DNA of 16,067 nt, taken from a virus. A model generated the notes under the pieces. It was not told where the DNA came from. It saw only the letters and a program-made list of their open reading frames with translations, and made no database searches. A program made the translations under genes and the position numbers. The stretch is from the UHGV virus genome UHGV-0180947; one strand, 5' to 3'. Position 1 is the stretch's first letter. Each line of letters begins with the position of its first letter. This document shows positions 4,839-10,348 of this stretch, in pieces.

Positions 4839-4964
4839 ATAATCTGTGGTGACTCTGTTTTATGGTCACCATTCTTATTCGACGAAATCACAGTCCGGTT
4901 TTGTCATAATTTTGTCCTCGCCTTGACATTATCGAGCCACCTCTGGAAGTGGCTCTGTAATGCC

Positions 4965-5432
4965 TTACTTCAGGCATTGCGTGGTGATGTATTCCTGCAG
5001 GGCTCTCAGGGCTGTTTGGTCGCTGAGGATTCCGGATCGGATACCGAGAACGTTTCGTCCAGCAACTGCAGAGAGTTCGACGGTGGCATCATCGCCCATG
5101 CTGGAGGCGCCGGTGGTTTGGGTTGAGGCTGACACTGGACATTTGCCTTTGACGAGCACCCGACCACCATTATCAAGCTTGCGCTGCAGAGCATCATTTT
5201 CAGCTTTTGCATCGGCTAATTCCTTCGTGTATTTGGCATCGAGCGCTGCGACGTCTCTCTGACGGGTCTGCATGTCAGCGATGGTGTCTTTCGCCAGGCT
5301 GAGCTGCTCAGTCACTTTATCGCGCTGCCTTTTGAACTCGGTGGCGTTGTCATGGTAGTGGCTAGCCAACCATCCGAGACTGACTATCAGGCAGATCACA
5401 ATGGCGCTGATAATGGTAGTTAATCGGCTCAT
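4965..5432 (-). CDS. Rz: Rz-type i-spanin (lysis)
   Basis: N-terminus [21 protein letters not shown]…[26 protein letters not shown] closely matches lambda Rz. The start at 5432 forms an ATGA overlap with the endolysin stop; the ORF track's longer start at 5450 would overlap the endolysin. Confidence 0.85.
5006..5212 (-). CDS. Rz1: Rz1-type o-spanin lipoprotein, embedded in Rz in another frame
   Basis: [21 protein letters not shown]…[14 protein letters not shown] closely matches lambda Rz1: signal peptide, lipobox VVGC, proline-rich mature region. It lies wholly inside Rz, as in lambda. Confidence 0.8.
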
Positions 5433-5938
5433 TTCTGCCCCCACAAACAAACTTCACGCTCAATCTCGCGGCGAGTTACCAGGCCTTTCCACTGCTTGCC
5501 CTTGGCGTAAGTCCAGCGGCGCAGCTGGTCGCACGCACCTTTCTGGTCGCCCTGGTTGATTTTGCGCAGCAGCGTGGAGGTCTGGAAGTTTCCAGCGCCG
5601 ACGTTATACGCGAATGAGTACAGAGCCCCGCGCATTATTTCGGGGATCGGCTTCTGGATGTATGGGTTAATCTGGCGGGCAACGGTGTTCAGGTCTTTGC
5701 TGAGTAGCGCACGGCATTCAGCCTCGGTGTACTTCTTGCCGAGCATGATATCTTTGCCAGTGTGGCCATAACAGACCGTCCAGACGCCTACCACATCCTG
5801 ATAAGGAACATATCGCACACCTTCAAGACCATCGTTACCGGTTGGGCCAGTGATGAGCGCAGAGGCAATGGCTATGGCGCCACCGCCGCCGGCGATCACG
5901 CCAATCAGTTTATTCCTCATTGATGGCGTCATGCTCAC
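5429..5938 (-). CDS. SAR endolysin (phage lysozyme with N-terminal signal-anchor-release domain)
   Basis: 169-aa ORF. The Gly/Ala-rich N-terminal segment [51 protein letters not shown] is very close to phage 21 R21 and P1 Lyz and carries the E…D…T catalytic residues. Its start overlaps the holin stop (ATGA). Confidence 0.9.
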
Positions 5939-6249
5939 CCCTGTGTATCACTTGCGATCCGCTTCAAGGCCTCGGTTACCACTTCGGCTGAAGCCGGGCG
6001 GTCACCTCCAGGCTTTGCGGAGACATCAGCCAGATAACTGGCCAACAGCTGCGTGCGTTTTTTCTCTTCATCCAGTCGCTCTCGCTCTTCCTTGCGCTTT
6101 GCGTAATACGTCTTGATTGTGAAGAAGGCAGAGATCAGGGCGCCAATGATGAAGACATAATCCTGCAGACTCAGGACGGAAAAGATACCAAGCAAGGCTG
6201 ACCACCAGTAAGGCAGATTGTGACCATCGGTTGGGTTCATACGTTGCAT
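5935..6249 (-). CDS. Holin (class II / pinholin-like)
   Basis: 104-aa ORF with two hydrophobic segments ([30 protein letters not shown]) and a charged C-terminus, directly upstream of and overlapping the SAR endolysin; strong GGAGGTGA Shine-Dalgarno. Confidence 0.75.
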
Positions 6250-6276
6250 CTCTCACCTCCGATAATGTTCGGGGTG

Positions 6277-6843
6277 CTATCTGTAGTCAGTAAAAGGTTC
6301 AGGGCCGTCGGGCTGATTTTCCGGGGATACCTTTCCCTGTTTTTGGGGATGGTTATCCCTGTTTTCAGGGATGGTTGGCGCGGCTATTCTGCTATCCCTA
6401 ATTTCAGGGATGGTGATAACCTGCGTTTCAACTTCAGCGACCGGAAAACTCACCGGACATTTAGGGCATTTCGGTTTGGTATAAGCCCATGCATCCAGAC
6501 AGGTGTTGATCCCGATGTATCGTGTTTGCCCAATCCTGCGAACCTTGATGATGTTGCGATAAGCAAGGCTGAGAACCGCTTCAGAAACGTGCTTAACCGC
6601 CAGCATGGTTTTGTCAGCGATGAGGCTGTTAGCGATCCGGTCTTCTTTTTTCGACCAGCCATACGTCAGGCGAACAATTGCATTCAGCACGCGAAATTCG
6701 CGCCCCGAAAGCTCCACTACACACAAGGCGTCCTGAATCTGGTTAGCAAGGCGCAGATAGCCATTGTCCAGATCAGCCATGCGACTCTCCTGCTGTACCT
6801 TTTCCGGCACAGGGAAATTGATTACTTCGGCAGTATTTGCCAT
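6277..6843 (-). CDS. O: Lambda-O-like replication initiator, N-terminal DNA-binding domain plus origin linker only
   Basis: N-terminus MANTAEVINF…RMADLDNGYLRLAN…LSGREFRVLNAIVRLTYGWSKKEDRI aligns with lambda O (…RNVADLDDGYARLSN…LTKRQFKVLLAILRKTYGWNKPMDRI). It is 188 aa against 299 in lambda O, and the C-terminal P-interaction domain is absent. Confidence 0.8.
   Translation of the reverse strand: MANTAEVINFPVPEKVQQESRMADLDNGYLRLANQIQDALCVVELSGREFRVLNAIVRLTYGWSKKEDRIANSLIADKTMLAVKHVSEAVLSLAYRNIIKVRRIGQTRYIGINTCLDAWAYTKPKCPKCPVSFPVAEVETQVITIPEIRDSRIAAPTIPENRDNHPQKQGKVSPENQPDGPEPFTDYR
6317..6413. repeat. Origin iterons (ori-lambda-like) inside the O-like gene
   Basis: Three near-identical 19-bp palindromic repeats: TCCCTGTTTTTGGGGATGG (6334-6352), TCCCTGTTTTCAGGGATGG (6356-6374), TCCCTAATTTCAGGGATGG (6395-6413), plus a degenerate copy near 6317-6331. 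Lambda iterons have the form TCCCTC…GAGGGA. Confidence 0.7.
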
Positions 6844-7229: not shown

Positions 7230-7421
7230 TTAATCAGGATTTCTGTTATGTGGGAAAGGCTTGATCTCCTCAGCCTTAATTTTTCCATCAGGCAGGGTGT
7301 TAACGAAAATCTTCCGCCCTACCCGGATAGCTTTACTAATTGCGGTCTGGTGAACGCCGATGGCATCAGCAGCTCTTGCCTGTCCAACTTCGTCAACGTA
7401 TTCAGCTAAAGAAATTTTCAT
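7230..7421 (-). CDS. cro: Cro-like repressor
   Basis: 63-aa product MKISLAEYVDEVGQARAADAIGVHQTAISKAIRVGRKIFVNTLPDGKIKAEEIKPFPHNRNPD aligns along its length with lambda Cro. The ORF track's 133-aa version is an upstream TTG extension through the operator region and is not credible. Start coordinate is within 1 nt. Confidence 0.85.
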   Translation of the reverse strand: MKISLAEYVDEVGQARAADAIGVHQTAISKAIRVGRKIFVNTLPDGKIKAEEIKPFPHNRNPD

Positions 7422-7448: not shown

Positions 7449-7516
7449 AAACAATACCACAAGTATTAAACATTGCAATACCGCGAGTATTTTTAAAATA
7501 AGAACATTGGTATTAC
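7449..7516. promoter_or_regulatory. Operator cluster (OR1-OR3-like) with divergent promoters for cro and cI
   Basis: 15-bp inverted repeats AATACCACAAGTATT (7453-7467) and AATACCGCGAGTATT (7477-7491), and a degenerate AAGAACATTGGTATT (7500-7514), spaced about 24 bp apart. A TTGCAA -35-like hexamer lies in the middle site and a TATTGT -10 candidate for the cro strand in the cro-proximal site. Exact promoter hexamers are tentative. Confidence 0.6.
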
Positions 7517-7525
7517 TATTTGAAA

Positions 7526-8236
7526 ATGGAAAAGAAAAAGACACTGACATCGGCTCAGATCGCTGACGCAGAAAGGCTGAAAGCCCTCTATGAAGCCAAG
7601 AAAAAAGAGCTTGGGATAACACAGCAATCAATAGCTGACATGCTAGACATATCTCAGGGGGGCGTTGGGCATTACTTGAATGGCAGGAATGCCCTTAATG
7701 CTGCCGTGGCTGCTGTTTTTGCCAGAGCCCTCCAGGTGGATGTCTCTGATTTTAGCCCCAGCCTTGCGAAAGAAATATCTGCAATGAGTGCTTCCGCTAC
7801 ATCGAATGCCAAGTATGCAGGCCAGTACACCCAAGGCATTAAATACCCTGTATTAAGCAAGATTCAGGCTGGGCATTGGTCGGAAGCGTGCGAGCCGTAT
7901 GCACTTAAAGATATCGATCTATGGCTAGAATCAGACGCTCACATCCAGGGGGATGCGTTCTGGTTGTTGGTCGAGGGGGAATCCATGACTGCCCCGGTCG
8001 GGCTCAGCATACCAGAGGGTACCTACGTTTTGTTTGATACCGGCCGAGAGCCAGTAAATGGCAGCCTTGTGATCGCAAAGCTATCCGAATCAAACGAAGC
8101 GACATTCAAAAAGCTGATTATTGATGGGGGCCAGAAGTACCTGAAGGGCTTAAACCCTCAATGGCCATTGGTTCCCATCAACGGAAACTGTCGAATCATT
8201 GGTGTGGCAGTAGAAACTAAGTTAAGGCTTGTGTGA
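7526..8236 (+). CDS. cI: CI-type repressor (HTH plus S24 LexA-like autopeptidase domain)
   Basis: Aligns with lambda CI over its whole length (…LTSAQIADAERLKALYEAKKKELGITQQSIADMLDISQGGVGHYLNGRNALNA…, …FWLLVEGESMTAP…, …TFKKLI…), including the Ser and Lys of the autocleavage dyad. ATG at 7526 with almost no leader; the ORF track's TTG at 7520 is the upstream alternative. Confidence 0.9.
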   Translation: MEKKKTLTSAQIADAERLKALYEAKKKELGITQQSIADMLDISQGGVGHYLNGRNALNAAVAAVFARALQVDVSDFSPSLAKEISAMSASATSNAKYAGQYTQGIKYPVLSKIQAGHWSEACEPYALKDIDLWLESDAHIQGDAFWLLVEGESMTAPVGLSIPEGTYVLFDTGREPVNGSLVIAKLSESNEATFKKLIIDGGQKYLKGLNPQWPLVPINGNCRIIGVAVETKLRLV

Positions 8237-8328
8237 TCGGCAGCATGCCGCAGACGTACAGGAAGCATGGGTAGCCACTTACGTTCGTTTTATCCTTGAT
8301 AAAATGAATTACAACGTATTAAAAAATA

Positions 8329-8616
8329 TTGAATTTTGGAGATAAACAATTGACTGAACGAAACCCGTCACTTACCCCTCAGCACATGACTGCGACCTCA
8401 ACCATTTTGACTCCTGGAAAGGATGAGGTTGTAATTACGTTTTACTCTCATGAATTTACTTATCTTTTACCAGAAAACGTTCAACCGCAAACTGGCATTC
8501 AGGTTAAAGTAGATCTGAGGCCTGAGATTGGTATTTCACTTACAACAGACCAAGCAATTGCGCTTACGAAGGCTCTTAAAACCAATTTGGAAGCGAATGG
8601 ACTTTGGAAACAGTAA
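8329..8616 (+). CDS. Hypothetical protein, first gene downstream of cI
   Basis: ORF-track TTG start at 8329; an in-frame TTG at 8350 with a GGAG Shine-Dalgarno 8 nt upstream is the more plausible start (88 aa). No family recognised. Looks markedly AT-rich against the structural genes. Confidence 0.45.
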   Translation: MNFGDKQLTERNPSLTPQHMTATSTILTPGKDEVVITFYSHEFTYLLPENVQPQTGIQVKVDLRPEIGISLTTDQAIALTKALKTNLEANGLWKQ

Positions 8617-9152
8617 ATCCTGGTTCGGATAATACAACTGTTACGCCTTCAAGTGGTAAGGCGGGATTTGTTATGCCGGGAATTATGGTTAGCGCAGCAT
8701 TAGCCGCGTCGATGGCGCCTTCCTATGGAAGCGTACCTCAGTACCAAATTGCTTTTGAAGATGCTAGTCTTACCAGTAGACCATATGACAAATTTACCAG
8801 TCTGCCGCTGGATAAAGAGACCGAATCACATGGAAGCAGTGTAAACTTGGAGGCCGATGTGAGCTCAGCAAGCAGAGAGGAGATCGACGCAAAACTGGCC
8901 TTGACAAAGGCTGAGATTGAACTATCTCAGGCTCATAACTTTTCGTCAATTGAAAAGCTATTGATTGAAGTTAAAGGAGAAATAGCGTCTTTACGGGGAG
9001 AGCTGTCTGGTAATAAAGATGCTGTCTCTGGGCAAATAGACGGGCTAAAAACATCTATTTCAACGATGCAATGGATGGTGGGGACTGTTCTTGCCATGAT
9101 GGGTATTGCTGTCGCTATTTTAGCCATTCCCGGAATCGATAAACTCCTGTGA
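8604..9152 (+). CDS. Hypothetical coiled-coil protein with one C-terminal transmembrane helix
   Basis: ORF-track TTG at 8604; an ATG at 8673 would give 159 aa. Central region (…EEIDAKLALTKAEIELSQAHNFSSIEKLLIEVKGEIASLRGELSGNKDAVSGQIDGLKTSIST…) is predicted coiled coil, followed by MQWMVGTVLAMMGIAVAILAIPGI. A terminator follows. Confidence 0.5.
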   Translation: METVNPGSDNTTVTPSSGKAGFVMPGIMVSAALAASMAPSYGSVPQYQIAFEDASLTSRPYDKFTSLPLDKETESHGSSVNLEADVSSASREEIDAKLALTKAEIELSQAHNFSSIEKLLIEVKGEIASLRGELSGNKDAVSGQIDGLKTSISTMQWMVGTVLAMMGIAVAILAIPGIDKLL

Positions 9153-9158
9153 TCACCC

Positions 9159-9184
9159 AACCCGGCCACCGCGCCGGGTTTTTA
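9159..9184 (+). terminator. Rho-independent terminator ending the cI operon
   Basis: AACCCGGC-CACCGC-GCCGGGTT stem-loop followed by TTTTT, 7 nt after the stop of the 8604-9152 ORF. Confidence 0.7.
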
Positions 9185-9463
9185 CTGCCCTACTCTTCCC
9201 GCAACATCAGCACATCCAGTGCCAGCTCCACAGCCAGATCGACCTGGTCTTCCTGTCACAACACCTGAATCATCTCTATCAGCGCCTCTCTTGAGGGCTC
9301 GCGCTTCTCAACCAGCAGCTGCATAACCGCTATCCCGATAACCTGCGCTATCTGCGGGTGCATTTCTGCGAAAAACTCATCCTCATTTGACATGCCAACA
9401 CCCCTTTATGATTTTTTTTTGAGCATAACAGCACTTTTTACAAAAATAAATTAACTTTAAAAT

Positions 9464-9533
9464 CATACCTTTAGTATTTTTATTAAATATCATAATACTG
9501 GCGGTATTGATATAAAATAATACCCGGAGTATT
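9464..9533. promoter_or_regulatory. Second operator cluster (OL-like) upstream of the plus-strand early operon
   Basis: Same half-site family as the cI/cro region: AATACTGGCGGTATT (9494-9508), AATACCCGGAGTATT (9519-9533), and a degenerate CATACCTTTAGTATT (9464-9478), set in an AT-rich region. Confidence 0.55.
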
Positions 9534-9614
9534 ATCATCTCATCCAAACAACACCGGCAACGCCGGGGTGAAGTCAAAACGTCCCGTTAGCCGCGATAAG
9601 GCAAAGGTGAAGAG

Positions 9615-10210: not shown

Positions 10211-10348
10211 CGAAAACCCCGCGCAAGGCGGGATTCACGTCCGGTGCCACCGACCAAAGTTACACCGGAATTTATACCAAACCAAAAAACATCCAATGGG
10301 CGCTATCTCTGGCCCGGGGATTCTAACACTCAAAAAAGAGGATCTCAC

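Follow-up and report, generated by a model that had tools for sequence, protein, structure and literature searches.

In phage lambda, two genes lie on the cI strand between the repressor gene cI and the promoter pL. They are rexA, which encodes a soluble protein of 279 amino acids (aa), and rexB, which encodes a polytopic channel protein with four helices. In the wild lambda-immunity phages HK542 and HK244, rexAB is replaced by another pair (144 aa and 206 aa), and in coliphage HK97 the order is cI (gp50), gp49, gp48 and N (gp47). Sister prophages of the one studied here carry in the same slot BstA, a single 307-aa soluble, DNA-associated abortive-infection protein. The cI-N interval has been described as a mosaic hotspot with rexAB and bstA, and BstA is an earlier case of a defence gene that the repressor operon drives (PMC8585504). 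Here we analyse the corresponding interval of virus genome UHGV-0180947, a stretch of 16,067 nucleotides (nt), referred to below as the window, which is a Klebsiella lambdoid prophage. Downstream of cI, on its strand, lie two open reading frames (ORFs), ORF1 and ORF2, encoding proteins A and B, and after them a hairpin terminator. An initial annotation, made from the letters alone, had reported this arrangement, and both ORFs and the hairpin were confirmed (Table 1).

The comparisons below lead us to conclude that ORF1 and ORF2 form a cassette of two genes, belonging to the HK97 gp49/gp48 family, that is real, under selection and exchanged horizontally, and that lies in a defence hotspot. Protein A is a homologue of gp49 (NP_037734; 46% identity, tblastn E-value 2e-21 in phage genomes), and protein B of gp48 (NP_037733; 36% identity over the full length, 99% coverage, tblastn E-value 2e-14). 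The two pairs sit in the same place. They have in common the cI-A-B-pL/N order, a 13-nt overlap between the two genes, and the head motif, stalk and C-terminal membrane helix of the second protein. They differ in that the membrane helix of HK97 gp48, unlike that of the window protein, is followed by a 40-residue P/Q/S-rich tail, and in the spacing between cI and the first gene, 425 nt in HK97 versus 113 nt in the window. ORF1 matches PHROG 26809 (E-value 1.7e-24) and ORF2 matches PHROG 5820 (E-value 2.9e-25), both families of unknown function. The first product had initially been said to match no family; this holds for Pfam, NCBIfam and PADLOC, but not for the PHROG family or for HK97 gp49. 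The description of the module as unrecognised had to be abandoned, since the pair is homologous to HK97 gp49/gp48 and to the pair replacing rexAB in HK542/HK244.

Homologues were also found in HK225 and Lambdavirus PDP110P1, and Klebsiella phage 6 LV-2017 has them in a stretch that bears no annotation. Of 5426 complete E. coli genomes, 52 (~1%) contain the HK97-type pair with at least 99% conservation, annotated there only as hypothetical; the Klebsiella cassette itself gave no megablast match to complete E. coli genomes. Horizontal acquisition, which had been proposed from base composition, is supported by MK448228, in which the cassette is 99.2% identical and stands next to an unrelated cI allele. 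An independent lambdoid contig has the same pair after cI, at 58% identity, and the cI-A-B-pL synteny is present in locus L005. More distant B homologues, each with a small partner gene upstream, follow cI in L009, L012 and HK542. A+B pairs were found outside immunity regions too, at two other positions of accessory genes (morons), one adjoining baseplate and tail genes (L006) and one at a prophage end (L007).

The gene first drawn from position 8329 is real, with a different start. The ORF list begins it at TTG 8329, and we prefer TTG 8350 because GGAG lies 8 nt upstream, because all homologues are 87-88 aa long, and because the identical MK448228 gene is annotated as 267 base pairs (bp). The start codon of ORF2 sits inside the conserved C-terminal GLWK codons of ORF1; the HK97 counterpart has the same overlap but starts with ATG (CTA-TGG in HK97, CTT-TGG in the window). 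Compared with a homologue (ORF1 and ORF2 proteins 82-90% identical), the ratio of nonsynonymous to synonymous substitution rates (dN/dS) was 0.15 for ORF1 and 0.07 for ORF2, which corresponds to purifying selection. Both genes are therefore translated and constrained, contrary to the possibility, raised at the outset, that the ORFs are untranslated. Protein A is small and soluble, and its translation is coupled to that of B. Its family is tiny: an exhaustive profile search among 1.84 billion representatives yielded about 8 small relatives, and sequence and profile searches of the PDB gave no match. Positions ~27-72 of the ORF1 profile also matched several stretches in each of a series of long repeat proteins (P0028-P0034, P0036 and P0037), with E-values down to 6e-9. 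Their internal repeats look PEGA-type, and we judged them to be spurious relatives; the matches to these PEGA-like repeats probably reflect a similar beta-strand pattern and not homology.

Protein B is a membrane protein in which a variable N-terminal head is followed by a neck with a coiled-coil stalk, and which ends in a transmembrane helix of high conservation. When 17 clusters were aligned, the N-terminal half proved variable and the C-terminal half conserved, with Q156, W157, G160, A164, A174 and P176 invariant in the anchor. The coiled coil and the single C-terminal helix predicted for this protein in the initial annotation were both recovered: there is a single strong hydrophobic segment (aa 151-182), heptad periodicity over aa 88-152 exceeds that of shuffled sequences (p = 0.0035), and the AlphaFold2 (AF2) model places a helix over aa 91-173. 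A second, marginal hydrophobic stretch is conserved at aa 17-41 (Kyte-Doolittle hydropathy 1.68), and some B proteins extend past the membrane helix with P/Q/S-rich tails of 30-45 residues. B is predicted to be tail-anchored in the inner membrane with its head and stalk in the cytoplasm, because the stalk and anchor are also present in the B relatives of HK542, L006 and L007, none of which has a hydrophobic segment at the N-terminus. In the PDB, ORF2 gave only a weak match to the coiled coil and anchor of 8qox_B (best-stretch i-Evalue 0.31), which looks compositional.

The same layout of head, neck, stalk and C-terminal anchor is known from DUF1640/CCDC90-like proteins (PF07798), in which a beta-layer motif, [aliphatic]-A-T-K-[polar]-[DE], starts the C-terminal stalk (PMC4786415). 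At the start of the B stalk we found a neck-like motif, S-R-E-E-I in the window and T-K-D-E-L in L015, that is [ST]-[RK]-[ED]-E-[LI] versus [aliphatic]-A-T-K-x-[DE] in DUF1640. Sub-threshold matches to PF07798, at E-values up to 1, were given by 12 of 17 B family members (best 5.3e-7). The window protein reaches 11.6 bits, versus a cut-off of 33.5 (E-value 0.25), and because it fails the Pfam threshold we describe B as having a DUF1640-like architecture, not as a member of the family. MCUR1, a DUF1640/CCDC90-like protein, is a mitochondrial scaffold protein, from which no functional information transfers to B.

A small partner gene was present upstream of every B-type gene examined, and three partner types could be distinguished: the 88-aa gp49 type (window, MK448228, L005, L102, HK97 and L015), a type of ~95 aa (L012 and L007, the two copies being 30% identical to each other) and a type of ~145 aa (L009, L006, HK542 and four scan loci). 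With hhalign, the 88-aa family gave a collinear but borderline alignment to the 95-aa type (E-value 0.019) and showed no relationship to the 145-aa type. The head of B varies between B subtypes and follows the type of A: the head motif P[GS]I[MIV]V[ST]A was found only alongside the 88-aa partner. The two halves of B have been separated by recombination within the gene, as the DNA to the right of ~8973 matches, at 84-90% identity, loci with an unrelated A gene and B head. The HK542/HK244 pair has the same slot and two-gene layout. Its second protein shares the stalk-anchor with the window B (34% identity over aa 83-178), but its B head is unrelated and its partner is of the unrelated 145-aa type, related to the A proteins of L006 and L009.

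The cassette occupies a slot whose two boundaries are retained while the cargo changes. The 41-bp joint on the left is, in the window, a non-coding remnant past the cI stop codon; in other phages it forms the 3′ end of a different cI allele, whose C-terminus reads VIGSMPQTYRKHG up to the stop. On the right, the terminator is kept in every related locus, whatever the cargo. It is thus a feature of the backbone and not of the insert, and its initial attribution to the module itself was withdrawn. The joint is doubled in many related phages, the core copies starting 203 bp apart. In L002 the copies at 2498-2538 and 2713-2742 flank a 120-bp ORF, L004 is organised likewise, and a degenerate copy (~429) precedes the A+B pair of L006, outside any immunity region. 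Given these doubled copies and the degenerate L006 copy, the joint looks like a recombination handle for cassette exchange.

Viral contigs were then scanned with the 26-bp core of the joint, which retrieved at least 120 contigs. Among the matches listed, 96 loci have both boundaries: the window, 8 loci fetched earlier and 87 known from the joint scan only. In these 96 listed loci the cargo spans 621-2168 bp and comprises at least 36 architectures and at least 46 protein families. Recognisable cargo includes BstA (5 loci, E-value 1e-123), RexA (E-value 2e-109), PD-Lambda-2 A and B, HEC-04 (an OLD-like ATPase), PDC-M63A/B, PDC-M66B, HigB, PIN and NYN. Recognised or candidate defence or toxin-antitoxin cargo is carried by 27 of the 87 listed joint-scan-only loci (~31%, an approximate tally from per-architecture counts), and an A+B pair by 9 of the same 87 (~10%). 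Klebsiella phage ST101-KPC2phi6.1 has RexA/RexB between the same joint and terminator; in other sister phages these boundaries enclose a ParA-like ATPase or small ORFs. The slot is a defence hotspot, and the earlier placement of the pair in the rexAB position, a hotspot for exclusion genes, was thus borne out. The commonest cargo, in 12 of the 96 loci among the matches listed (L096, L101, L110, L113 and 8 others), is a 126-aa predicted lipoprotein (MRKILIAAMMASLLAGC...) forming a 621-bp insert. It has no Pfam or PADLOC match and may be an exclusion lipoprotein. A ParA-like ATPase of 351-368 aa comes next, with 11 loci among the matches listed.

The window pair and RexA/RexB are therefore interchangeable occupants of one slot, on the cI strand, each consisting of a soluble and a membrane protein, and presumably alike in being expressed in the lysogen. 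The proteins themselves are different. A is 88 aa long and has no sequence relation to RexA: the RexA models of Pfam (PF15969) and PADLOC gave no match to ORF1 at E-values up to 1, whereas they do match the true RexA of the sister phage (1e-81 and 2e-109). B has one strong C-terminal helix, a long coiled coil and, at aa 17-41, a marginal hydrophobic segment, and is not polytopic as RexB is. BstA has no homology to ORF1 or ORF2.

We found no convincing terminator between cI and ORF1, in agreement with the initial annotation; terminator-like matches lie inside coding sequence and do not exceed shuffle expectation. The spacer between the two genes (8237-8349, 113 nt, 37% GC) has no significant fold (z = -0.42) and a scan of it returned no promoter-like site of at least 9/12, the sole candidate in the leader, TTGATA-N18-TAAAAA, being weak. 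Expression in the lysogen is most likely on the cI transcript, with cI presumably the promoter-proximal gene of the operon bearing the cassette. A moron is an autonomous accessory unit of transcription with a promoter and a terminator of its own and a deviant base composition; the cassette has a GC content of 42.8% versus 52.4% for the window, no leader promoter of at least 9/12 and a terminator common to all cargo types. The AT-richness noted at the start is real when compared with the portal, terminase and RecE genes (57-58% GC). It is nevertheless a trait of the whole immunity region and not specific to the insert, because cro (44.8%), cI (49.2%) and OL/pL (38.5%) are low too. A promoter-like site, TTGGAA-N18-GATAAT (8604-8633, + strand), lies exactly at the ORF1/ORF2 junction, a position that recalls lambda pLIT inside rexA. 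A transcript starting there could encode only a shortened B, from Met24. An analogy with pLIT could not be claimed, as promoter-like matches do not exceed chance (7 versus 4.4 +/- 2.3 expected from shuffles).

Table 1. Features of the window around the ORF1/ORF2 cassette, with their positions
Feature	Position	Strand	Remarks
ORF1 (A partner)	8350-8616	+	TTG start; 88 aa, soluble, acidic; HK97 gp49 homologue
ORF2 (B protein)	8604-9152	+	TTG start; 182 aa; HK97 gp48 homologue
B head, aa 1-87	8604-8864	+	acidic, predicted disordered; conserved hydrophobic motif PGIMVSAALAAS; AF2 predicted local distance difference test (pLDDT) score <50
B neck and coiled-coil stalk, aa 88-152	8865-9059	+	begins S-R-E-E-I-D-A-K-L; R91, L98 and E104 invariant
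B C-terminal transmembrane anchor (WMVGTVLAMMGIAVAILAIP)	9072-9131	+	Kyte-Doolittle hydropathy 2.33; followed by only 6 residues
Internal recombination boundary in ORF2	8973-9158	+	blastn versus L009, L010 and L011
Left slot boundary, 41-bp joint (GTGATCGGCAGCATGCCGCAGACGTACAGGAAGCATGGGTA)	8233-8273	+	95-100% conserved beside unrelated cI alleles and unrelated cargo
Cassette-specific AT-rich leader	8274-8349	+	Shine-Dalgarno GGAG at 8338-8341
Right slot boundary, intrinsic terminator	9159-9184	+	8-bp stem, U5 tail, -14.6 kcal/mol
cI repressor	7526-8236	+	Pfam HTH_3 (1.2e-8) and Peptidase_S24 (2.7e-22); PHROG 4
Cro gene	7233-7421	-	divergent from cI
Operator-like inverted repeats AATAC(C)-N4-5-(G)GTATT	7453-7492 and 9490-9535		flank the immunity region; presumably OR and OL
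Small convergent gene	9185-9393	-	between terminator and OL/pL
RecE, RecT		+	after ORF1/ORF2
Mu-F-like head gene, portal, small terminase, lysozyme, short replication-O gene		-	
Integrase	right end of window	-	

The prophage around the cassette appears defective. Its replication-O gene has only 188 aa (window ~6280-6843), and homology to a Klebsiella-phage lysis cassette (holin and lysozyme, ~4891-6322) starts at ~6322, directly adjoining that gene. No P/DnaC, nin or Q gene was seen between replication and lysis in the window. The small convergent gene downstream of the terminator is kept in sister phages as a 67-codon ORF (MSNEDEFFAEMHPQIAQVIGIAV...). In the window its Trp46 codon TGG has become TGA (nonsense at 9256-9258), which cuts the product to 45 aa, and this product has no Pfam or NCBIfam match. 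We rejected this antisense gene as a part of the cassette, its presence or absence varying across all cargo types. A weak Rfam match to the Hfq-binding small RNA isrB (10212-10298, - strand; 25.4 bits versus a gathering threshold of 35, E-value 0.11) is probably due to chance.

We read the pair as a mobile accessory cassette of the cI-to-pL slot, expressed in the lysogen on the cI transcript and acting as a phage-exclusion pair, and we give this reading as a whole a probability of about 0.5. A role in defence or exclusion appears well motivated by position and modularity. In the mechanism that we propose, A would bind the head of B, and A and the head together would sense a component of the superinfecting phage. 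The stalk-anchor, probably as an oligomer, would then perturb the inner membrane and the infection would be aborted. The logic would be that of Rex, a sensor and a membrane effector, with unrelated proteins, and the weak TTG starts of both genes may serve to keep a potentially toxic effector low. Abortive, Rex-like logic is favoured because recombination separates the variable and constant halves, because both genes use weak TTG starts, and because conservation of the transmembrane helix exceeds what a passive anchor would require. More tentatively, gp49/gp48-type pairs at large might be an unrecognised modular prophage defence family, in which the stalk-anchor effector would perturb the membrane, the head and the small co-varying partner, of which there would be three interchangeable types, would set phage specificity, and recombination within the effector gene would exchange one sensor half for another. 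This idea is directly testable, because such pairs are present in HK97 and in ~1% of complete E. coli genomes.

Several observations weigh against an exclusion pair. HK97 has been studied for decades, and our literature search turned up neither functional work on gp48, gp49 or their PHROG families nor a phenotype reported for any member of the gp49/gp48 family. Only gp15 has been reported as an exclusion gene of HK97 (PMC3594210). Known defence systems offered no counterpart: a PADLOC search had been suggested initially as a check, and with PADLOC-DB v2.0.0 neither ORF1, ORF2 nor six subtype relatives gave a match, while no Pfam or NCBIfam model passes for either protein. As ~60% of the slot cargo types among the matches listed have no known function, position in the slot is by itself no proof of defence. 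Only the spacing and the lack of a terminator suggest co-transcription with cI. The AF2 models of both proteins, built on shallow alignments, are of low confidence (pLDDT 52.6 and 49.1), and aa 17-41 of B could be a first membrane segment, in which case the stalk would be periplasmic.

This last point leads to an alternative, superinfection exclusion at the stage of DNA entry, in which B would sit in the inner membrane and block genome injection without killing the cell, much like HK97 gp15, P22 SieA or T4 Imm; the stalk would possibly be periplasmic if aa 17-41 were a signal-anchor. B is a membrane protein, as this requires, and membrane exclusion proteins are common as prophage cargo (PMC3594210). 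The heads of the A type with their hydrophobic segment, which in some homologues have signal-peptidase-like ends (...GVTA/YD in L015), and the P/Q/S tails of 30-45 residues past the membrane helix of some B proteins would fit as well. We nevertheless regard entry exclusion as unlikely, given that a cytoplasmic stalk is more parsimonious for a family in which the B proteins of HK542, L006 and L007 have no N-terminal hydrophobic segment, and that a soluble cytoplasmic partner co-varying with the head is not expected of a simple injection block. The pair might instead regulate the life cycle of its own prophage, by biasing the switch, or through induction, lysis timing or membrane preparation. 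Its place in the immunity operon suits such a role, a coiled coil followed by a C-terminal membrane helix recalls lysis-associated membrane proteins, and RexA/RexB reportedly take part in the lysogeny-to-lytic transition. This is distinctly improbable in our view, as the cassette is dispensable, being swapped with unrelated cargo beside many cI alleles, and pairs located elsewhere, for instance by tail genes, are not predicted by a switch-specific role. Moreover, the window protein has no match to Pfam holin or XhlA models at E-values up to 1, and the sole holin match among the 17 B proteins came from one member (Phage_holin_2_1, E-value 0.017).

Lysogenic conversion unrelated to phages, that is a membrane or stress fitness trait of the host obtained for instance by tethering a cytoplasmic factor to the membrane, would agree with a tail-anchored coiled coil. 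The tail-anchored proteins ElaB and YqjD tether ribosomes in this way, and several cargo types of the slot, among them the lipoprotein and the ParA-like ATPase, are not annotated as defence genes. The rapid diversification and shuffling of A and of the B head are, however, typical of conflict systems, and those slot neighbours that can be recognised are overwhelmingly genes of defence or toxin-antitoxin systems, so that we rate its chances as poor. As for ORFs that are non-functional, decaying or untranslated, and merely carried along with the immunity region, the TTG starts of both genes, the defective look of the surrounding prophage and the nonsense mutation in the neighbouring small gene could be put forward in favour. 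The dN/dS values of both genes, frames intact in lineages down to 36-46% identity, the conserved overlap and motifs, and the at least 99% conservation of the HK97-type pair in 52 complete E. coli genomes make this hardly conceivable.

We conclude that the pair, while not an unknown family, is a credible and easily testable candidate defence module. If it is a defence system, it would represent a new effector architecture for prophages, a single-helix, tail-anchored coiled coil with swappable heads, and it would provide a function for HK97 genes 48 and 49, sequenced in 2000. Beyond this pair, lambdoid prophages of Klebsiella and enterobacteria have a cargo slot of great diversity, marked off by the 26-bp joint core and the conserved terminator, and most of the architectures in it are of unknown function. 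For Klebsiella, in which resistance encoded by prophages matters for phage therapy, the slot provides a ready discovery list.

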